In this document: positions 1 to 11,601 of the stretch, one piece after another
How positions within the stretch are numbered: the stretch's first letter is position 1
How the letters are laid out: every line of letters begins with the position of its first letter
Origin: a virus
Lineage: Duplodnaviria > Heunggongvirae > Uroviricota > Caudoviricetes
Virus record (IMG/VR): IMGVR_UViG_2563366903_000018
Reading direction: 5' to 3' (one strand)
DNA length: 12,535 nucleotides
The notes under the pieces: generated by a model
Told to the model about the DNA's origin: nothing
What the model saw: the letters and a program-made list of their open reading frames with translations, nothing else
The model's database searches: none
Position numbers and translations under genes: made by a program

Positions 1-567
1 ATGCTTATTGGCTATGTACGCGTGTCAACAAATGACCAGAACACCGATTTGCAACGTAATGCACTGAACTGCGCGGGATGTGAGCAGATTTTTGAGGACA
101 AAATCAGTGGCACTAAGTCCGACAGACCGGGGCTGAAAAAACTACTCAGGACACTATCGGCAGGAGACACGCTGGTTGTCTGGAAGCTGGACAGGTTGGG
201 GCGCAGTATGCGGCATCTTGTTACGCTGATAGAAGAGTTGCGCCAGCGTGGTGTGAATTTCAGAAGCCTGACTGACAGTATTGATACCAGTACCCCAATG
301 GGCCGTTTCTTTTTTCATGTCATGGGTGCCCTGGCTGAAATGGAACGCGAACTGATAGTTGAACGTACCAGGGCAGGGCTGGCTGCAGCTCGTGCCAAAG
401 GCAGAGTAGGTGGACGCCGTCCTAAGTTGACCACCGAACAGTGGGCACAGATTGGGCGTTTACTCGAGGCCGGAGAATCAATACAGCGTATTGCACTGAT
501 TTTTGATGTAGGCGTTTCTACCATTTATAGAAAATTTCCGGCAAATAAGATCAATGAATCCCCCTGA
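1..567 (+). CDS. Serine DNA invertase (Gin/Pin/Hin family site-specific recombinase)
   Basis: 188-aa ORF starting at window position 1. N-terminus MLIGYVRVSTNDQNTDLQ matches the catalytic-serine motif of small serine invertases, with a C-terminal helix-turn-helix region; remembered similarity to phage Mu Gin along most of its length. Sits where P2-like phages carry the region next to tail fibre genes. Confidence 0.9.
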   Translation: MLIGYVRVSTNDQNTDLQRNALNCAGCEQIFEDKISGTKSDRPGLKKLLRTLSAGDTLVVWKLDRLGRSMRHLVTLIEELRQRGVNFRSLTDSIDTSTPMGRFFFHVMGALAEMERELIVERTRAGLAAARAKGRVGGRRPKLTTEQWAQIGRLLEAGESIQRIALIFDVGVSTIYRKFPANKINESP

Positions 568-599: not shown

Positions 600-709
600 A
601 CAAATACCGTTATTTTGTGTGAATAACGACACAACTGCGCTTAGCTGTTTGTCAGGCACAATCACTTCAACATAGGGCGAAGCCTAATCCAATCAGGAGG
701 TTCGCCACT
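600..709 (+). promoter_or_regulatory. Predicted P2-type late promoter upstream of FI, with a TGT-N12-ACA activator site (Ogr class) at 616..633
   Basis: TGTgtgaataacgacACA at 616..633 fits the TGT-N12-ACA dyad recognised by Ogr/Delta-type activators at P2 late promoters. It lies about 55 nt upstream of where a transcription start would be expected (around 675-685). RBS-like caggagg at 693..699 precedes the FI ATG at 710. No clear -35, as is typical for activator-dependent late promoters. Confidence 0.5.
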
Positions 710-1882
710 ATGGCTCAGGATTACCACCACGGGGTGCGCGTTGTTGAAGTCAACGAAGGCACCCGATCTATTACCACGGTGAGCACCGCCATCGTGGGTA
801 TGGTCTGCACGGGCGATGATGCCGATGCAAAAATGTTTCCTCTTAATAAACCCGTGCTGATCACTGATGTGCTGACTGCCAGCGGTAAAGCGGGTGAGTC
901 AGGTACTCTGGCCCGTTCGCTGGATGCCATCGCTGACCAGGCAAAACCCGTGACCATTGTTGTGCGTGTGCCGCAGGGTGAAACGGAAGACGAAACCACG
1001 ACCAATATCATCGGCGCAGTGACTGCTGAAGGTAAAAAAACAGGTATGAAAGCCCTGTTATCTGCCCAGTCACAGCTCGGCGTTAAACCGCGCATTCTCG
1101 GCGTGCCAGGCCACGACACCAAGGCGGTAGCTACTGAGTTGCTGAGCGTGGCGCAAAGCCTGCGTGGATTTGCTTACCTGTCAGCGTATGGCTGCAAGAC
1201 AGTGCAGGAGGCGATCACTTACCGCGAAAACTTCAGCCAGCGCGAAGGGATGCTGATCTGGCCTGACTTTACTGGCTGGGACACGGTGCTGAATGCCGAA
1301 GCAACGGCATATGCCACCGCCCGTGCGCTTGGTCTGCGCGCCAAAATTGACGAGCAGACCGGATGGCACAAAAGCCTGTCCAACGTGGGCGTGAACGGTG
1401 TCACCGGAATTTCTGCAGATGTGTTCTGGGATCTGCAGAACCCGGCAACCGATGCAGGTCTGCTGAACCAGAACGACGTCACCACGCTTGTGCGTAAAGA
1501 CGGTTTCCGCTTCTGGGGTTCCCGTTGCCTGAGTGATGACCCGCTCTTTGCCTTCGAAAACTACACCCGCACGGCGCAGGTGCTGATGGACACGATGGCA
1601 GAAGCACACATGTGGGCGGTGGATAAACCGCTTAACCCGTCGCTGGCCCGCGACATTATCGAAGGTATCCGCGCCAAAATGCGCAGCCTGGTCAGTCAGG
1701 GCTATCTCATTGGTGGTGATTGCTGGCTGGATGAGTCGGTGAACGACAAAGACACGCTGAAAGCCGGAAAACTCACCATCGACTACGACTACACGCCAGT
1801 GCCGCCACTTGAAAACCTGATGCTGCGTCAGCGCATCACCGATCAGTACCTGGTGAATTTCGCCAGCCAGGTCAGCGCGTAA
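710..1882 (+). CDS. FI: Contractile tail sheath protein (P2 gpFI homolog)
   Basis: 390-aa ORF with a good RBS; length and sequence character match P2 gpFI (about 396 aa); position immediately upstream of the tail tube gene. Confidence 0.9.
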
Positions 1883-1891
1883 GGGGACAAC

Positions 1892-2407
1892 ATGGCTTTA
1901 CCACGCAAATTAAAACACCTGAACCTGTTTAACGACGGGAACAACTGGCAGGGGATCGTTGAGTCGCTGACGCTGCCGAAATTTACCCGCAAATATGAGA
2001 AGTATCGCGGCGGCGGAATGCCGGGTGCGGTGGATGTGGATCTGGGGCTTGATGACAGTGCGCTGGACACAGAATTTTCCATTGGTGGTACTGAATTGCT
2101 GCTGTTTAAACAGATGGGTAAAACCACGGTGGATGGCATCCAGCTGCGCTTTACCGGCTCTATTCAGCGTGACGATACCGGGGAAGTGCAGGCCGTGGAG
2201 CTTGTCGTGCGTGGACGTCACAAAGAAGTGGATTCCGGCGAGTGGAAGACGGGCGAAAGCAACACCACCAAAGTGACCAGTACCAACAGCTACGCGAAGC
2301 TGACCATCAATGGTGAGGTGCTCTATGAAGTGGACCTTATCAACATGGTGGAAATTGTGGACGGTGTGGACCTGATGGAAGCGCACCGCAACGCCCTCGG
2401 CCTCTGA
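1892..2407 (+). CDS. FII: Tail tube protein (P2 gpFII homolog)
   Basis: 171-aa ORF directly after FI, starting MALPRKLKHLNLFNDG; size and synteny match P2 gpFII (about 172 aa). Confidence 0.9.
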   Translation: MALPRKLKHLNLFNDGNNWQGIVESLTLPKFTRKYEKYRGGGMPGAVDVDLGLDDSALDTEFSIGGTELLLFKQMGKTTVDGIQLRFTGSIQRDDTGEVQAVELVVRGRHKEVDSGEWKTGESNTTKVTSTNSYAKLTINGEVLYEVDLINMVEIVDGVDLMEAHRNALGL

Positions 2408-2418
2408 TATATCTGAAC

Positions 2419-2436
2419 GGCGCGGGATACCGCGCC
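2419..2436 (+). other. GC-rich stem-loop between FII and E (GGCGCGG-GATA-CCGCGCC)
   Basis: Perfect 7-bp GC inverted repeat with a 4-nt loop, read directly from the sequence. No U-tract follows, so it is not a canonical intrinsic terminator; it could be a partial terminator or RNA stability element. Confidence 0.3.
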
Positions 2437-2461
2437 AGAACCCAATTGACAGGACAGCAAA

Positions 2462-2764
2462 ATGAGCGATAAGCAGACTGAAAAGACCATTCAACTGGAT
2501 ACCCCCATCAAGCGCGGTAAAACAGAAATCACCGAAATTGTGCTGCGTAAACCGCAGTCCGGTGCGCTGCGCGGTACACGCCTGCAGGCCATTATGGATA
2601 TGGATGTAAACGCGATGATGACCGTGATCCCCCGCATCTCCAGTCCGGCACTGACTGCACAGGAAATTGCAGAGATGGACCCGGCAGATCTCACTGCCAT
2701 GTCGGTTGAGGTTGTCACTTTTTTGTTGAAGAAGTCGGTGCTTGCCGGTTTACCGACAGCCTGA
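2462..2764 (+). CDS. E: Tail assembly chaperone gpE (zero-frame product)
   Basis: 100-aa ORF between the tail tube and tape measure genes; contains the slippery heptamer near its 3' end, as in P2 gene E. Confidence 0.8.
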   Translation: MSDKQTEKTIQLDTPIKRGKTEITEIVLRKPQSGALRGTRLQAIMDMDVNAMMTVIPRISSPALTAQEIAEMDPADLTAMSVEVVTFLLKKSVLAGLPTA

Positions 2765-2898
2765 CGGTTGACGATCTGGTGGCAGATATCGCCACCATTT
2801 TTCACTGGCCGCCATCCGTTACTGACGTTATGCCGCTGACCGAAGTGCTGGAATGGCGGTATAAAGCGATTCAGAGAAGCGGGGCCAACGATGAGTGA
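2462..2898 (+). CDS. E+E': gpE+E' frameshift fusion protein (E frame 2462..2725, then -1 frame re-reading 2725 through stop at 2896..2898)
   Basis: Manual translation of the -1 frame from 2725 gives VEEVGACRFTDSLTVDDLVADIATIFHWPPSVTDVMPLTEVLEWRYKAIQRSGANDE, ending at TGA 2896..2898, which overlaps the T start codon at 2891. This is the conserved G/GT-like chaperone frameshift arrangement known for P2 E/E'. Confidence 0.65.
2719..2725 (+). promoter_or_regulatory. Programmed -1 ribosomal frameshift slippery site T_TTT_TTG (E to E')
   Basis: Heptamer TTTTTTG lies in the zero frame of E as T TTT TTG (codons Phe-Leu at 2720..2725). The -1 frame is open from here to a stop at 2896..2898. Confidence 0.7.
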
Positions 2899-3204
2899 TA
2901 ACAACCTGCGTCTGCAGGTCATTCTTAATGCGGTTGACAAGCTCACCCGCCCATTTCGATCTGCGCAGGCCAGTTCAAGAGAACTGGCTGCTGCTGTCAA
3001 AAAATCCCGCGATGCAATAAAGCAGCTTGATCAGGCCGGGAGCAGTCTGGACAGCTTCCGAAAGCTGCAGGCAGAAAATCAGAAATTAGGCGACAGGCTG
3101 AACTATGCCCGCCAGCGTGCAAATTTGCTCAGTCAGGAACTGGGAGCGATGGGGCCGCCTTCGCAACGTCAGGTTGTTGCTCTGGGCCGTCAACGGCTGG
3201 CTGT
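2891..3204 (+). CDS. T: Tail tape measure protein gpT, exon 1 (5' part; predicted 5' splice site after 3204)
   Basis: ORF starts MSDNNLRLQVILNAVDKL directly after E'. The reading frame runs into a stop at 3224..3226 only 7 codons after a GTGTG motif at 3205. The tape measure frame resumes about 1.8 kb downstream in the same frame. Confidence 0.55.
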
Positions 3205-3715
3205 GTGTGTCACGAAGGAGAACTGATAGCGGCAATATGAAAATTGCAGCATAAGTTATCCATGCTCTGAGGTGGGTGGAGGTGGGCCCTCCGGTCAGGG
3301 TTTGCAGGAACACTGACCAAACGACCCGGTGCTGCTTCATTCTAAGGAATGTAGTGGTGAGCGACTCGGGAAAAGGCAGAGATCTACTGTCACGTGGGGT
3401 TCGGGAAGCTGAACGAAAGTAAACTGTCCGATGAAGCATCGAAATCTTAGATGATGTCAAAATGGGGCCGTACAGCCGTCCTCTGATAAGCGCAGAAGAC
3501 ACCTGCTTACTGACTGCGCGGCATCCGGTGTTAAGGCAGCAGGATCCCGGGCCAGACCATCTCAGGGAACGTGAGAACCTGTTTCCGGCACGTATCGGGA
3601 AACAGGGGCGGACCCATTCGTAGTAGTGATGAAAGATCTGTAATGGGTCTGGAGCGAAGGGATGGGGATCACATTCATTGCAAAAGACACAACCCATAAG
3701 GGGATGATGTAACTG

Positions 3716-4948
3716 ATGCAACGAAAATCATTCGAAATACCAAAAGCACTGGTCTGGGCATCATATCTGGATGTGCGTCGCAACAAGGGAGCCCCCGGAT
3801 GCGACGGACAGACTTTGAAAATGTTCGACCAGCAACGTGATGGCAATCTATACAAGATCTGGAACCGGCTATGTTCGGGAACATGGTTTCCGCCACCTGT
3901 GCTGGAAAAACGGATCCCGAAGCCGAATGGCAAGGAGCGCATTCTGGGGATCCCAACAGTATCCGATCGAATTGCTCAGGGAGCGATAAAACTTTTTATG
4001 GAAGAAAAGCTTGACCCGATTTTCCATGCTGATTCTTATGGTTACCGACCAGGCAAATCAGCTCATGACGCTCTGAAACAATGTGCCATCCGGTGCTGGC
4101 GTTATAGCTGGATACTGGAAGTGGACATCAGTGCGTTTTTCGACCATGTGAGACATGATCTGGTGCTCAAAGCACTGGAACACCACGGGATGCCTAAATG
4201 GGTCATCCTGTACTGTCGACGCTGGATGGAAGCACCAATGCAGAGTTGTGAAAATGGAGAATTAATAACCCGAACACGAGGCACTCCGCAGGGCGGGGTC
4301 ATTAGTCCGCTACTTGCTAACTTGTTCCTTCACTATGCATTTGATTTGTGGATGGAAAGAGAATATCGGGGGGTACCGTTTGAGAGGTACGCTGATGATA
4401 TTGTAGTACATTGTTCACGAATGAGTGATGCAACAAGGCTGAAGAACAGGTTATCGGAGCGCTTCTCGGAAGTCGGGCTGGTCCTGAATGCAGGGAAAAC
4501 GAATATCGCCTACATTGACACGTTTAAAAGGAGAAACGTCGCAACGAGTTTCACCTTTCTCGGATATGACTTCAAAGTGCGTACGCTGAAGAATTTCAAA
4601 GGCGAACTGTACCGAAAATGCATGCCGGGTGCGTCAAATGCAGCAATGCGCAAAATAACAGAAACAATCAAGAAGTGGCGTATACATCGCTCAACAGCTG
4701 AGAGTTTGCTGGATTTTGCGAGGCGCTACAATGCGATAGTGAGAGGCTGGATCGAGTACTACGGAAAGTTCTGGTCCAGAAATTTCAACTATCGACTGTG
4801 GAGTGCAATGCAGTCACGTCTGCTCAAGTGGATGCAGTCTAAATACAGACTTTCGAACCGGAGGGCTCAGCGAAAGCTGACGCTGGTAAGGAAGGAGTAT
4901 CCGAAGCTATTTGTCCACTGGTATTTACTACGTGCATCGAATGAGTGA
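3716..4948 (+). CDS. Group II intron-encoded reverse transcriptase/maturase (En-minus type)
   Basis: 410-aa ORF with RT motifs: IPKPNGKERILGIPTVSDR (RT1/2), YGYRPGKSAHDAL, LEVDISAFFDHVRHD (RT3), GTPQGGVISPLLANLFLH (RT4), YADDIVV (RT5 catalytic), FLGYDF (RT7), and maturase domain X RGWIEYYG. No Cys/His-rich HNH endonuclease region after domain X. RBS-like aagggga about 11 nt upstream of the ATG. Confidence 0.9.
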   Translation: MQRKSFEIPKALVWASYLDVRRNKGAPGCDGQTLKMFDQQRDGNLYKIWNRLCSGTWFPPPVLEKRIPKPNGKERILGIPTVSDRIAQGAIKLFMEEKLDPIFHADSYGYRPGKSAHDALKQCAIRCWRYSWILEVDISAFFDHVRHDLVLKALEHHGMPKWVILYCRRWMEAPMQSCENGELITRTRGTPQGGVISPLLANLFLHYAFDLWMEREYRGVPFERYADDIVVHCSRMSDATRLKNRLSERFSEVGLVLNAGKTNIAYIDTFKRRNVATSFTFLGYDFKVRTLKNFKGELYRKCMPGASNAAMRKITETIKKWRIHRSTAESLLDFARRYNAIVRGWIEYYGKFWSRNFNYRLWSAMQSRLLKWMQSKYRLSNRRAQRKLTLVRKEYPKLFVHWYLLRASNE

Positions 4949-4952
4949 TCAA

Positions 4953-5028
4953 GAGCCGTATGACGCGAGAGTGTCACGTACGGTTCCGTGAGCAGCCGGG
5001 GAGTGAAATTCTCTCCGGCTGACTCGAC
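4953..5028 (+). ncRNA. Group II intron ribozyme domains V and VI (catalytic hairpin plus branch-point hairpin)
   Basis: Domain V GAGCCGUAUGACGCGAGAGUGUCACGUACGGUUC (4953..4986): 10-bp lower stem, AGC catalytic triad at 4954..4956, 2-nt CA bulge on the 3' strand, 4-bp upper stem, GAGA (GNRA) tetraloop. Domain VI: 11-bp stem 4993..5003 with 5011..5021, bulged A at 5022, short basal helix, intron ending ...GAC at 5028. Confidence 0.75.
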
Positions 5029-7792
5029 TCAGCGCCTGGAAGAACGCCAGAAAAAGCTGCAGCAGCAGACGGCGCTTGTGCGTGCTGAACTGTACCGGGC
5101 GGGAATTTCTGCGAAAGACGATGCGGGAGCAACTGCCCGTTTAGCCCGTGAAACATCACGTTATAACCAGGAACTTTCGAAACAGGAGGCGCGGCTGAAG
5201 CGACTGGGGGAAGCTCAGCGCAGGATGAATGCAGCGCGTGCCAGTTATGCCCGTTCGCTGGAGGTGCGTGATCGTATTGCAGGTGCCGGAGCCACCACCA
5301 CGGCTGCAGGGCTGGCAATGGGTGCGCCAGTGATGGCGGCAGTAAAAAGCTATACCAGCATGGAAGATGCCATGAAAGGTGTGGCAAAGCAGGTCAATGG
5401 TCTGCGTGACGATAATGGCAACCGCACTGCACGTTTTTATGAAATGCAGGATGCCATCAAGGCTGCCAGCGAACAGTTGCCGATGGAAAACGGTGCGGTG
5501 GACTTCGCTGCACTGGTTGAAGGTGGTGCGCGCATGAACGTCGCAAACCCTGACGACAGCTGGGAAGATCAGAAACGTGACCTGCTGGCCTTCGCCAGTA
5601 CGGCAGCAAAGGCGGCAACAGCCTTTGAGCTGCCAGCGGATGAACTGTCAGAAAGTCTGGGGAAAATCGCCCAGCTCTACAAAATCCCCACCCGCAATAT
5701 TGAACAGCTCGGTGATGCGCTGAACTATCTGGATGATAACGCCATGTCGAAAGGGGCAGACATCATTGATGTGATGCAACGTCTGGGCGGTGTGGCTGAC
5801 CGTCTGGATTATCGTAAAGCGGCGGCGCTGGGTTCCACCTTCCTGACACTGGGCGCTGCGCCAGAGGTTGCAGCCAGTGCAGCAAACGCGATGGTGCGTG
5901 AATTGTCCATTGCCACCATGCAAAGCAAGAGTTTCTTTGAAGGGATGAATCTGCTGAAACTCAATCCTGAAGTGATTGAAAAGCAGATGACGAAGGATGC
6001 GATGGGAACCATCCAGCGCGTGCTGGAGAAGGTAAACGCGCTGCCGCAGGACAAGCGCCTGTCTGCCATGACTATGTTGTTTGGTAAAGAGTTTGGCGAT
6101 GACGCGGCGAAACTGGCAAACAACCTGCCGGAACTGCAGCGTCAGTTAAAACTGACAGCGGGCAATGATGCGCTTGGCTCCATGCAGAAAGAATCCGACA
6201 TTAACAAGGATTCACTTTCTGCGCAGTGGTTGCTGGTCAAAACCGGAGCGCAGAACACCTTCAGCAGCCTGGGCGAAACGCTGCGCCAGCCGCTGATGGA
6301 TATTCTGTACACGGTGAAAAGCGTCACGGGGGCGTTGCGTCGCTGGGTGGAAGCTAACCCGGAACTGACAGGCACACTGATGAAAGCATCGGCTGTTGTG
6401 GCTGCGGTTACCGTCGGCCTCGGCACCTTAGCGGTGGCGCTGGCTGCAGTGCTGGGGCCGCTGGCAGTGATCCGTCTGGGATTCTCTGTGTTGGGTATCA
6501 AAACGTTATCTTCCGTTACGGCAGCAGTAACTCGAACCAGCAGCGCGTTGTCCTGGCTGGCTGGCGCACCACTGGCACTGCTGCGACGCGGGCTTGCTTC
6601 ATCGGGCAACGCCGCAGGTTTACTTACTGCGCCGTTGTCGTCTTTGCGCCGCACGGCATCACTGACGGGAAATGTCCTGAAAACTGTAGCAGGTGCGCCG
6701 GTTGCACTTTTGCGGTCTGGATTATCCGGTTTACGTGCTGTTGCTGTGATGTTTATGAATCCTCTGGCGGTACTGCGCGGTGGACTGGCCGCCGCAGGCA
6801 CGGTGCTGCGAGTACTGGCATCTGGTCCACTGGCGATGCTGCGCGTTGCCCTGTATGCCATATCTGGTCTGTTAGGTGCTCTGCTCAGTCCGATAGGTCT
6901 TGTGGTTACTGCACTGGCGGGCGTGGCGCTGGTTGTCTGGAAATACTGGCAACCCATCACCGCATTTCTCGGTGGCGTGGTGGAAGGATTCAAAGCGGCG
7001 GCAGGTCCCATCAGTGCAGCGTTCGAACCGCTTAAGCCCGTGTTCCAGTGGATTGGCGACAAAGTGCAGGCGCTGTGGGGCTGGTTTACTGATCTGCTGA
7101 CGCCCGTTAAGTCGACCTCTGCCGAACTGCAGAGCGCAGCGGCAATGGGGCGGCGATTCGGGGAGGCACTGGCGGAAGGGCTGAATATGGTCATGCATCC
7201 GCTGGACTCCCTGAAATCCGGAGTTTCCTGGTTGCTGGAGAAGCTCGGCATTGTCAGTAAAGAGGCCGCAAAGGCAAAACTGCCGGAAAGCGTGACGCGT
7301 CAGCAACCTGCGACGGTGAATGCAGACGGTAAAGTGATGATGCCATCGGGTGGTTTTCCATCATGGGGATATGGCTTTGCGGGGATGTATGACAGCGGCG
7401 GGTATATCCCGCGCGGGCAGTTTGGCATCGTCGGTGAAAACGGGCCGGAAATTGTTAACGGCCCGGCAAATGTGACCAGCCGGAGAAATACAGCTGCACT
7501 GGCTGCCGTTGTTGCCGGAATGATGGGCGTTGCTGCCGCGCCAGCAGAGCTTCCACCGTTGCACCCCTTGGCACTTCCCGCGAAAGGTGGAGAAGCAATT
7601 GTGAGTCGCGCAGCCACTGTGCCGCTCGTTCAACGGATTGAGGCACCGACGCAGATCATCATTCAGACGCAGCCAGGACAAAGTGCGCAGGATATTGCGC
7701 GGGAGGTGGCACGCCAACTTGATGAACGTGAACGCAGGCTGAAGGCAAAAGCCAGGAGTAACTACAGCGATCAGGGGGGATACGACGCATGA
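5029..7792 (+). CDS. T: Tail tape measure protein gpT, exon 2 (predicted 3' splice site before 5029; stop at 7790..7792)
   Basis: 934-codon open frame (the ORF track starts it at an internal GTG at 4988, inside the intron). Ala/Gly/Leu-rich with a repeat-bearing central region and a C-terminal region typical of tape measure proteins. Same frame as exon 1; predicted junction codon gt|t gives ...ALGRQRLAV-QRLEERQKKLQQQ.... Stop overlaps the U start (ATGA). Confidence 0.6.
6566..6940 (+). repeat. Tandem degenerate repeats of about 20-22 aa within the tape measure protein (PLAxLRxGL-type units)
   Basis: The translation shows consecutive units: APLALLRRGLASSGNAAGLLT / APLSSLRRTASLTGNVLKTVAG / APVALLRSGLSGLRAVAVMFMN / PLAVLRGGLAAAGTVLRVLASG / PLAMLRVALYAISGLLGALLS / PIGLVVTALAGVALVV. 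Confidence 0.6.
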
Positions 7793-8274
7793 TGATGGTG
7801 CTGGGATTGTACGTGTTTATGCTGCGCACCGTTCCGTATCAGGAACTGCAGTATCAACGCAGCTGGCGACATGCGGCAAACAGTCGGGTAAACCGACGTC
7901 CGTCCACGCAGTTTCTGGGACCGGAAAACGACATGCTGACGCTTTCCGGTGTTCTTATGCCGGAGATAACAGGCGGCAGGCTGTCGTTGCTGGCACTGGA
8001 GCAGATGGCAGAACAGGGGAAAGCATGGCCCCTGATTGAAGGCAGTGGCACGATTTACGGTATGTATGTGATTGAGGGACTGAATCAGACTAAAACGGAG
8101 TTTTTCCGCGATGGTATGCCGCGCCGGATTGAGTTTACCCTGTCGCTCAAACGGGTGGATGAATCCCTGTCCGATATGTTCGGTGATCTCAGTGCGCAGC
8201 TGAATAATTTGCAGGATACGGCAACGTCTGCCTTAAGCGATATCAGTAAAACGGTGGGAGGGCTGCTGTCGTGA
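7789..8274 (+). CDS. U: Tail protein gpU homolog
   Basis: 161-aa ORF whose start overlaps the T stop (ATGA); size and position match P2 gpU (about 159 aa). Confidence 0.85.
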   Translation: MMMVLGLYVFMLRTVPYQELQYQRSWRHAANSRVNRRPSTQFLGPENDMLTLSGVLMPEITGGRLSLLALEQMAEQGKAWPLIEGSGTIYGMYVIEGLNQTKTEFFRDGMPRRIEFTLSLKRVDESLSDMFGDLSAQLNNLQDTATSALSDISKTVGGLLS

Positions 8275-9371
8275 ATTTCAGCTCTGAACTGCTTAACAAA
8301 GGCAACAAAACTCCGGCATTCAGCATCAGTATTGAAGGCAGGGATATCACTACTGTGCTGGACAACCGCCTGATGGGGCTTACGCTGACGGATAACCGGG
8401 GCTTTGAAGCGGACCAGCTTGATCTGGAGCTGGACGACGCCGATGGAAAAATCGTGCTGCCGCGCCGTGGTGCGGTCATTACGCTGGCGCTGGGCTGGAA
8501 GGGGCAGCCGCTTTTCCCGAAAGGGGCATTCACGGTGGACGAGATTGAACACACTGGCGCACCGGACCGCCTGACTATCCGGGCGCGAAGTGCTGATTTT
8601 CGTGAAACACTGAATACCCGCCGTGAAAAGTCGTGGCACAAGACCACCGTTGGGGAAGTGGTGAAGGAAATAGCTGCGCGGCACAAACTGAAGATGGCAT
8701 TGGGTAAAGACCTGTCAGATAAACCCGTGGAACATATAGATCAGACCAATGAGAGTGACGGCAGTTTTCTGATGCGGCTGGCGCGCCAGTACGGTGCTAT
8801 TGCGTCGGTGAAAAATGGCAATCTGTTATTCATCCGACAGGGGCAGGGTAAAAGCGCCAGTGGTAAACCACTACCGGTTATCACTATCACACGTAAGGAC
8901 GGCGACAGTCACCGCTTTACCCTGGCAGATCGCGGAGCTTACACGGGCGTAATTGCCAGCTGGTTGCATACCCGCGAACCCGCGAAGAAAGAAAGCACCG
9001 CGGTGAAGCGTAAGCGCAGGACTAAGAAGCAGAAGAAAGAGCCGGAAACGAAGCAGGGCGATTATCTGGTGGGTACGGATGAAAACGTGCTGGTACTTAA
9101 TCGCACCTATGCTAATCGGAGTAACGCCGAACGGGCAGCGAAAATGCAGTGGGAACGCCTGCAACGCGGCGTTGCGTCATTCTCGCTACAACTGGCGGAA
9201 GGGCGGGCAGATCTCTACACGGAAATGCCAGTGAAAGTCAGTGGCTTTAAACAGCCGATAGATGATGCGGAATGGACCATTACGACTCTGACGCATACCG
9301 TCAGCCCCGATAACGGTTTTACAACCAGTCTGGAGCTTGAAGTGAGGATTGATGATTTCGAAATGGAATGA
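8271..9371 (+). CDS. D: Tail protein gpD homolog (late control gene D product)
   Basis: 366-aa ORF with a GTG start overlapping the U stop (GTGA); position before ogr and length match P2 gpD (about 387 aa). Confidence 0.85.
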   Translation: MNFSSELLNKGNKTPAFSISIEGRDITTVLDNRLMGLTLTDNRGFEADQLDLELDDADGKIVLPRRGAVITLALGWKGQPLFPKGAFTVDEIEHTGAPDRLTIRARSADFRETLNTRREKSWHKTTVGEVVKEIAARHKLKMALGKDLSDKPVEHIDQTNESDGSFLMRLARQYGAIASVKNGNLLFIRQGQGKSASGKPLPVITITRKDGDSHRFTLADRGAYTGVIASWLHTREPAKKESTAVKRKRRTKKQKKEPETKQGDYLVGTDENVLVLNRTYANRSNAERAAKMQWERLQRGVASFSLQLAEGRADLYTEMPVKVSGFKQPIDDAEWTITTLTHTVSPDNGFTTSLELEVRIDDFEME

Positions 9372-9750: not shown

Positions 9751-9793
9751 TTCAGGCAACAAAAAACCCATCAACCTTGAACCGAAATGGCGG
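9751..9793 (-). terminator. Rho-independent terminator for ybjL (minus strand)
   Basis: Perfect 10-bp inverted repeat CCCATCAACC (9757..9766) / GGTTGATGGG (9784..9793) with a 17-nt loop. On the minus strand it is followed by a U-tract (plus-strand AAAAAA at 9751..9756). It lies about 120-165 nt downstream of the ybjL stop. Confidence 0.6.
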
Positions 9794-9915
9794 GGTTGAT
9801 GGGCTCCACAAAATGGGGACATCAAAGAAAAGCAGTGGCACTAATTAAGACTGATGCCCTGCGGAAAAGTTCTGCGGTTGTGCAAAAAAATTTCATTTTC
9901 AGGGCAACTTCAGTT

Positions 9916-11601
9916 TTATCCTAATCCTGGCCATACCATGACGATGATTGTCCCTGCCAGCGTCAGCAGGACGTTGGCGATTGCATAGGTGCCCGCATAG
10001 CCCAGCGCCGGGATGTTACTGCGAGCTGTATCACTGATGATCTCCATTGCCGGCGCGCAGGTGCGTGCGCCCATCATTGCGCCGAACAACAGTGCGCGGT
10101 TCATTCGCAATACATAAGCACCGAACAAGAAACAGATAACCACTGGCACAAGACTGACAATCAATCCGGCAATCAACATCTGACCGCCAATCGCGCCCAG
10201 GCCGTTATTAATACCGCTACCGGCGCTCAGACCAACGCCTGCCATAAACACCATTAAGCCGAACTCTTTCACCATGCTTAATGCACCCTGCGGAATGTAA
10301 CCGAAGGTCGGGTGGTTAGCGCGCATAAATCCCAGCATAATTCCGGCGAATAACAACCCGGCAGCGTTCCCCATGCCGAAACTGAATGTGCTGAACTGGA
10401 AGGTGATCATCCCGATCATCAGCCCAATAACAAAGAAGGCGCAGAATGCCAGCAAGTCAGTGACCTGGCTGTGAATCGAGATAAAGCCGATGCGATCGGC
10501 GATGGTTTTTACGCGACGGGCATCGCCGCTGACTTGTAAAACGTCACCTTTGTTAAGCACGACGTTGTCATCTATCGGCATCTCAATCTGGCTACGAATG
10601 ACGCGGTTAAGGAAGCAACCGTGATCGGTCAACTTCAGTTGTGCGAGACGTTTGCCCACGGCGTTATGGTTTTTAACGACCACTTCTTCAGTGACGATAC
10701 GCATGTCGAGAAGGTCACGATCGAAAACTTCTTTGCCGTTACGGAAGCTGGGATCGAGTCGTGCGTGGGCGTCGGGATAGCCTACCAACGCTATTTCATC
10801 TCCCATTTGTAGCACAGCATCACCGTCTGGATTCGCCAGAATCCCGTTACGTCGAATACGTTCAATGTAGCAGCCAGTTTGTCGATAAATACCCAGTTCA
10901 CGCAGATTTTTGCCGTCGGTCCAGGCCACCAGCTCCGGGCCGACGCGGTAGGCGCGGATCACCGGTAAATAAACCTTACGGTTGGCATCAGTGTCCAGGC
11001 CACGTTCGCGGGCGATTTGCTGGGCGCTGGTCTGTAAGTCCTGATGCTGCAATTTCGGCAAGTAACGCGCACCAACAATCAAACTCACCAGACCGATTAA
11101 ATAGGTTAAGGCATACCCGAGGCTCAGATTATCCAGTGCCAGTGAGAGCTGCCTGCTTTCCATGCCGGAATGACGCAGTGTATCGCCAGCACCGACCAGA
11201 ACCGGTGTCGACGTCATAGAGCCAGCTAACATACCGGCCGTCAGGCCAATATCCCAGCCAAACAGCTTACCTAACCCTAAGGCGATCACCAGCGCACTGC
11301 CAACCATCACCAGTGCTAACATTAGGTAATTTTTCCCATCGCGAAAAAAAATGGAAAAAAAGTTCGGTCCGGCTTCGACTCCGACGCAGAAAATAAACAG
11401 CATAAAGCCAAGATTAAGCGCGTCGGTGTTAATGCTGAAATGTTGTTGGCCTAATAACAGCGATACGACTAAAACGCCAATGGAATTACCCAGTTGGATC
11501 GAACCAAGTCGTAATTTCCCGAGACATAGCCCAAGCGCGAGGACCACAAATAATAACAGAATGTAATTCCCATTTAACAATTCGGCGACGTTTATATTCA
11601 C
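9916..11601 (-). CDS. ybjL: Putative transport protein YbjL (AAE-family membrane transporter with internal TrkA-C-like domains)
   Basis: 561-aa ORF starting [20 protein letters not shown]; hydrophobic N- and C-terminal halves flank a soluble central region; matches E. coli YbjL in length and remembered sequence. Confidence 0.9.

Follow-up and report, generated by a model that had tools for sequence, protein, structure and literature searches.

Stable intercistronic stem-loops shield upstream mRNA from 3' exonucleases, as at the malE-malF REP of Escherichia coli and in the Rhodobacter puf operon. In the malEFG operon, where the REP follows malE, and in the puf operon of Rhodobacter capsulatus, a stable stem-loop that has no U-tract lies in an untranslated gap past the high-copy cistron or cistrons, and differential stability of the mRNA segments has been proposed to set the stoichiometry of the subunits. 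Leaky termination is known from phage T7, where the terminator T-phi is situated after gene 10. The rho-independent terminator annotated at the tube-chaperone junction in the record of Mannheimia phage 1127AP1, and the intrinsic termination site located by ONT-cappable-seq 3' of the tail tube gene of the Listeria myophage CKA15 (PMC12282133), have the same arrangement as T-phi, in that each directly follows a gene whose product is abundant in the virion and precedes essential low-copy genes. Positional homologues of the hairpin described below occur in P2 and other Peduoviridae, which carry a GC stem of 7-12 bp, 5-13 nt past the tube stop codon, in a tube-chaperone gap of 52-62 nt within the same operon; in the records of P2 and of Escherichia phage 500465-1 this hairpin is without annotation.

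The hairpin described here lies at the FII-E junction, between the tail tube and tail assembly chaperone genes, of a P2-family prophage. It resembles the malEFG REP and the puf hairpins in its stable stem-loop, in its position in an untranslated gap past high-copy cistrons and in the absence of a U-tract. REP sequences are genome-wide repeats of ~35 nt with a consensus, whereas the hairpin described here is a single-copy element of 18 nt that has no common sequence, and its stabilising effect is predicted. T-phi and the CKA15 and 1127AP1 terminators have a U-run after the stem, in contrast to the present hairpin, which has none. It differs from that of P2 in a stem of unrelated sequence (CCGGTCAGC/GCTGGCCGG in P2) and in the size of the loop, which in P2 is 3 nt.

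Results

Gene context of the junction

The window, by which we mean the whole 12,535-nt stretch of DNA that was analysed, corresponds to the end of a P2-family prophage that holds the tail genes, with 99% identity across the common parts to Escherichia phage 500465-1 (NC_049342; Peduoviridae, Wadgaonvirus) and ~95-96% identity to Klebsiella phages such as 4LV2017. Pfam domains (Table 1) bear out the gene calls of the original prediction, with the sheath gene followed by those for tube and chaperone and then by tape measure, GpU and GPD, and place the hairpin between tube and chaperone genes as had been claimed. The distal low-copy genes T, U and D abut or overlap each other, and in phage 500465-1 the FII-E junction is the sole gap of more than 9 nt within the FI-to-D operon. 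The P2 virion contains 192 copies of gpFI, as against 3 of gpD, 6 of gpU and a tape measure of three-fold (C3) symmetry (bioRxiv 10.64898/2026.09.14.750843). The helical lattice of the tube is the same as that of the sheath, and with 192 copies on one side and 3-6 on the other, the junction therefore divides products that are needed in ~30- to 60-fold different amounts.

Upstream of FI lies a TGT-N12-ACA dyad, the motif of Ogr/Delta-activated P2 late promoters; it is a putative activator site, and the hairpin-bearing transcript of the operon probably begins in this region. The dyad overlaps a 7-bp AT-rich palindrome at 608-628. A promoter scan of the + strand from 2408 to the D stop called no promoter. 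The TTGACA at 2446-2451, a perfect -35-like hexamer that overlaps the E leader, was considered as an internal promoter for E and rejected as probably a chance match, as relatives have TTTACA or TTAACA in its place, no usable -10 accompanies it and the start would fall inside E.

Table 1. Features of the window, with their positions and the basis for each assignment
Feature	Position	Strand	Basis and remarks
Invertase gene	1-567		Pfam
TGT-N12-ACA dyad TGTGTGAATAACGACACA	616..633	+	Pattern match; ~80-90 nt 5' of FI start
FI, tail sheath, high-copy product	710..1882	+	Pfam Phage_sheath_1 and Phage_sheath_1C; tail sheath in NC_049342
FII, tail tube, high-copy product	1892..2407	+	Pfam Phage_tube, 201 bits; 52% identity to P2 gpFII
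FII stop codon TGA	2405-2407	+	Sequence
FII-E intergenic region	2408-2461 (54 nt)	+	Sequence
Spacer, FII stop codon to hairpin	2408..2418 (11 nt)	+	Sequence; freely variable in relatives
Hairpin: GGCGCGG 2419-2425, GATA loop 2426-2429, CCGCGCC 2430-2436	2419..2436	+	Sequence and folding
E leader, unpaired	2437..2461 (25 nt)	+	Sequence; centroid fold
E Shine-Dalgarno AGGA	2451-2454 (7 nt 5' of ATG)	+	Sequence
E, tail assembly chaperone, first of the low-copy genes 3' of the hairpin	2462..2764 (ATG at 2462)	+	Pfam Phage_TAC_7
E' frameshift extension	~2779-2898	+	Homology to NC_049342 layout
Tape-measure T start	2891	+	Homology to NC_049342 layout
group-II-D1D4-2	3278-3394	sense	Rfam, 93 bits
Intron RT-maturase ORF	3716-4948	sense	RVT_1 and GIIM maturase domain
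Intron_gpII (D5/D6)	4951-5028	sense	Rfam, 57 bits
Tape measure T, second exon ORF	4988..7792	+	Pfam PhageMin_Tail
U	7789-8274	+	Pfam Phage_P2_GpU
D	8271-9371	+	Pfam Phage_GPD
Ogr/Delta-type activator, last phage gene	9429-9680		Pfam
rybB sRNA gene	9758-9836	-	Rfam, 105 bits; past last phage gene
ybjL-like Asp-Al_Ex permease gene	9916-11601	-	Beside rybB

Several other features of the prophage were recorded. A group II intron at ~3205-5015 lies in sense orientation within the tape-measure gene T and is absent from the 99%-identical 500465-1; T is split into ORFs at 2891-3226 and 4988-7792, and a functional T would need the intron to be spliced. The rybB gene lies past the last phage gene and beside the permease gene, and the right attachment site of the prophage is therefore probably at or beside the rybB 3' end. 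Insertions of the IS21/IS100 family are present in the replication region of 500465-1 (NC_049342.1, 2249-3481) and beside a truncated sheath gene in phage 520873 (locus L103, 1-473), and several of the related 'phage' records therefore look like decaying prophages.

The hairpin of the window

The hairpin is a perfect stem of 7 bp, all of them G-C or C-G pairs, and with its tetraloop comes to 18 nt in total. The stem, loop and position that had been predicted read true in the sequence, as does the absence of a U-tract, since the bases 3' of the stem are AGAACCCAATTG and the 8-nt tail AGAACCCA contains no T. In RNAfold predictions the MFE and centroid structures alike contain the hairpin, with a centroid energy of -16.6 kcal/mol in its 81-nt context and -15.1 kcal/mol for the isolated 18-mer, and it dominates the predicted ensemble. 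The E Shine-Dalgarno (SD) sequence is unpaired in the centroid fold, and its AGGA is weaker than the AGGAGG of FI. Against chance the fold of the 81-nt context does not stand out (z = -0.8). All-GC perfect hairpins of at least 7 bp, of which this is the only one in the window, arise at 0.17 per dinucleotide shuffle of the 12.5-kb sequence and are found at least once in 13% of shuffles. The sequence of the single window is weakly unusual and suggestive at most; the case for more than chance comes from the relatives.

For 2300-2600, searches against Rfam 15 returned no match above chance level (E of at least 5.9) and none that reached the gathering score, and there was nothing at the hairpin when the whole window was scanned. 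A REP or other mobile repeat was rejected on the grounds that the hairpin is single-copy: one copy was found in the window, and one in the 39-kb phage record together with an unrelated partial match inside a gene. An RNase III site was rejected, as a 7-bp stem would be too short to serve as a substrate for this enzyme. A terminator for the opposite strand was also rejected, there being no T-run on that side (GTTCAGAT) and no support for the antisense ORFs there.

Two further places in the late genes were considered beside the FII-E junction. A hairpin past the capsid gene was rejected as a parallel, given that the capsid gene of 500465-1 ends only 3 nt ahead of the small terminase gene. Among adjacent late genes on one strand, phages of the 500465-1 type have one more sizeable gap, between M (small terminase) and L (head completion), at NC_049342.1 12911-13005; it is GC-rich and strongly structured (-33 kcal/mol over 95 nt) and is possibly another junction element like the hairpin.

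Conservation across relatives

Tube-chaperone junctions were collected from 13 reference P2-like phages, 80 IMG/VR contigs, 12 distant phages (including phiCTX and phages of Ralstonia, Burkholderia, Stenotrophomonas, Mannheimia, Vibrio, Xanthomonas and Achromobacter) and 80 prophages drawn from GTDB species representatives, which together yielded 185 loci and 138 distinct junctions. Each of the 13 reference phages, from 9 genera, has a GC hairpin in the FII-E gap, and their stems are mutually unrelated, as illustrated by P2 (given above), ENT90 (GCCAGCGC) and 3LV2017 (GGCGGCC). Most of the 138 distinct junctions have a compact GC hairpin ~8 nt past the tube stop, and hairpins at -10 kcal/mol or better fall into 44 distinct stem classes. 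Position is shared where sequence is not: over 42 stem classes the median gap is 8 nt from stop codon to hairpin and 28 nt from hairpin to the next start, and in 38 of the 42 the hairpin is nearer the stop than the start. The hairpin of the window fits this positional class, that is a compact GC hairpin 5-13 nt after a Phage_tube stop and ~25-30 nt before a Phage_TAC_7 start. Its exact junction is found, at 90% identity or above, in 965 of 5,426 complete E. coli genomes, always located under tube and assembly genes.

Hairpin-less short gaps are seen in Burkholderia KS5 (32 nt), in Salmonella SEN5 (14 nt) and in a Providencia prophage (15 nt), and most loci of Xenorhabdus and Photorhabdus have a gap of 26-46 nt that is free of a hairpin; the element, although widespread, can therefore be dispensed with in some lineages. 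P2-type tube genes that are followed by such short gaps (14-46 nt) without a hairpin were recorded at loci L153-L171 and L177 (Xenorhabdus/Photorhabdus) and at L096, L104 and L168. Xenorhabdus/Photorhabdus loci, which may be tailocin clusters, account for many of them.

Selection on pairing

When 94 distinct close-clade junctions were aligned with MAFFT, without structural guidance, the stems still fell in register. Across a nine-pair helix, 83% of cells pair, versus 27-44% after a shift of the 3' partners by 1-3 columns, and 55 cells carry double changes (GC to AU, CG to GC and GC to CG) versus 16.5 in shuffles, none of 500 shuffles reaching 55. RNAalifold recovers the core of the same helix. 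The covarying cells of the close clade probably go back to a small number of events in evolution, and the unrelated stems of other genera are therefore the stronger evidence of covariation.

Within the stem class of the window (74 sequences) the column entropy is 0.14 for each arm, while the loop reaches 1.47, the spacer 1.22 and the bases after the stem 1.30; the neighbouring codons, at 0.37-0.48, are also above the arms. The loop occurs in 27 different variants. Several of the single changes in the arms are C to T with a G.U pair kept, and a double change in one sequence (GGTGCGG/CCGCACC) is fully compensatory.

Coding windows of equal length from the same loci served as controls. Best-hairpin energy has a median of -14.0 for junctions versus -9.3 for coding windows, and 8 of 62 junctions beat every control; this energy-only comparison separates poorly because long imperfect hairpins also form in GC-rich coding sequence, and it was replaced by a criterion of compact perfect stems. 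A perfect stem of at least 7 bp with at least 6 GC pairs is found in 31% of junction classes versus 0.67% of coding windows, an enrichment of ~45-fold. These comparisons show that purifying selection acts on the pairing of the hairpin and does not extend to the sequence of its loop or flanks.

Relation to intrinsic terminators

An intrinsic terminator combines a GC-rich stem-loop with a U-run of about four or more in 8 nt. The hairpin of the window has the former (7 G/C pairs, -15.1 kcal/mol) and lacks the latter; its d'Aubenton-Carafa score is -35.5 with a T-weight of 0.02, and it is missing from the calls of the terminator scan. Judged by its sequence, the window copy is not an intrinsic terminator. 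The score exceeds 0 in 4 of the 44 hairpin classes, namely those of phiCTX (CCGCCGGC...GCCGGCGG TTTCTCTC), Vibrio MAR (GCGCCC...GGGCGC TTTTTTAT), Xanthomonas M29 (...CCGCCGCC TTTTTAC) and locus L091. At least four T are found in the 8-nt tail of 16 of the 44 stem classes, while at least four A in the mirror position are found in 5; with a threshold of at least five, 8 classes have the T downstream versus 1 with the A upstream. Tails with one T or none occur in 15 of the 44 classes, and the means of T downstream and A upstream, 2.57 and 2.41, are not different (p = 0.34). With few classes terminator-like, the stem and not the U-tract is the common selected feature, the U-run being an optional addition on the mRNA-sense side. 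The side taken by the U-run, together with the selection on the stem, points to a role where the sheath-tube segment of the RNA ends rather than at the DNA level.

The terminator scan lists a different hairpin, TGGTGGCAGATATCGCCACCA followed by TTTTTCAC, at 2777-2797, 13 nt past the E stop. It lies inside the frame of the E' extension, is kept in close relatives and not in P2 or PSP3, and may be a palindrome of the coding sequence rather than a signal.

Discussion

We propose a model for the FII-E hairpin in the context of the decaying late mRNA, to which we would give an even chance of being correct. The hairpin sits in the polycistronic FI-FII-E-T-U-D transcript, just 3' of the tube stop codon, and would form there an exonuclease barrier at the 3' end of the sheath-tube segment. 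Endonucleolytic cleavage or premature transcript ends downstream would expose the E-T-U-D RNA to 3'-to-5' exonucleases such as PNPase and RNase II, which would digest back until they stall at the G/C stem. Sheath and tube mRNA would thereby outlast the E-T-U-D segment, the one persisting and continuing to be translated while the other decays, and this would help to supply sheath and tube in far greater amounts than the chaperone, tape measure, tube initiator and hub. A stem-loop located 11 nt past the stop codon in an untranslated 54-nt gap, clear of the terminating ribosome, a conserved layout, an unconstrained loop and a pairing that is kept without its sequence across 44 unrelated stem classes are what we would look for in a stabilising hairpin. 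Counting against the barrier is the ability of poly(A)-assisted decay in E. coli to get past a stem of 7 bp. Full-text literature searches on the F operon of P2-like phages returned no transcript mapping, 3'-end or half-life data. We infer each of the three parts of the model, namely that the hairpin acts in RNA, that it blocks exonucleases and that it changes the ratio of expression.

The original prediction held that the hairpin could give higher expression of sheath and tube than of chaperone and tape measure. This idea is favoured indirectly by the purifying selection on pairing, by the location of the hairpin in the sole sizeable gap of the operon and by the boundary between 192 and 3-6 copies, and further by the canonical terminators that stand at the junction in some relatives and by the site mapped past the tube gene in an unrelated myophage. 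Of the two means that it offered, an RNA-stabilising hairpin fits better, whereas a partial terminator is weakened by the lack of U's, the strongly negative score and the silence of the terminator scan.

The same data fit a decay barrier, a translational insulator and a weak pause or termination site. In a leaky terminator or attenuator, part of the RNA polymerases would stop at or just past the hairpin and fewer transcripts would reach E-T-U-D. We consider this unlikely, even with the hairpin-plus-T-run at the junction in phiCTX, Vibrio MAR, Xanthomonas M29 and L091, the annotation of the Mannheimia record, the surplus of T-rich tails over their A-rich mirror and the CKA15 termination site (PMC12282133) on its side, because the window copy has no T in its tail, scores far below zero and is missing from the terminator scan, 15 of the 44 classes have at most one T, and mean T and mean A are alike. 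Moreover, no + strand promoter was called between 2408 and the D stop, and E, T, U and D are essential in P2, so that any termination must be partial. U-less hairpins are not known to terminate E. coli RNA polymerase efficiently. The satellite P4 protein Psu suppresses Rho in P2 late operons, and the U-less hairpin might be a family-wide factor-dependent 3'-end signal instead of a passive barrier, for example a pause or termination site assisted by Rho and NusG or modulated by Psu; this seems improbable, and if it were true the ratio of sheath and tube to tape measure would be under active control during infection or when the satellite takes over. Somewhat better placed, and still rather doubtful, is a translational insulator, in which the stem past the FII stop would bar ribosomes that have completed the heavily translated tube gene from sliding on and re-initiating at E and leave E to rely on its own modest SD sequence. 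The hairpin does adjoin the stop (median 8 nt) rather than the start in 38 of 42 classes and never covers the SD, that of E being the weaker of the two compared, and elsewhere the low-copy genes adjoin or overlap each other, in keeping with coupling of genes that are to have equal output. This layout would be expected, however, of any element at the 3' end of an upstream cistron, and the insulator leaves unexplained why several lineages have added a T-run to the hairpin.

A role in DNA, as a palindromic protein site or as a single-stranded hairpin for rolling-circle replication or packaging that has been placed in the one free gap, is very improbable. GGCGCGG-N4-CCGCGCC does look like an operator for a dimer, its half-sites being conserved and its centre free, and the gap is the only non-coding space inside the operon. 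The arms are wholly different across genera and yet complementary, however, and the C to T changes that give G.U pairs in loci L034, L038, L050 and L079 are sensible only in RNA; the phage genome has no second copy, the hairpin matches no Rfam or known motif, and the T-runs are on the mRNA-sense side. Least credible of all is a functionless GC palindrome that arose by chance in a spacer. The unremarkable z-score and the appearance of an all-GC 7-bp hairpin somewhere in 13% of the window shuffles would permit it, but arm entropy is ~10 times below that of the adjacent non-coding bases and below that of the neighbouring codons, and to this are added the covariation, the ~45-fold enrichment over coding windows and the recurrence in 44 stem classes.

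By analogy, the hairpin would be of an ordinary operon-tuning kind, akin to known intercistronic hairpins and attenuators, and it opens no new biological question. For annotation, most P2-like tube-chaperone hairpins are not intrinsic terminators and should not carry that label. Providing the proposed exonuclease barrier is confirmed, the hairpin would offer a compact and portable insulator for engineered tailocin and phage-tail operons, and would explain in part how a very common prophage family obtains a ~30- to 60-fold ratio of proteins from one promoter.
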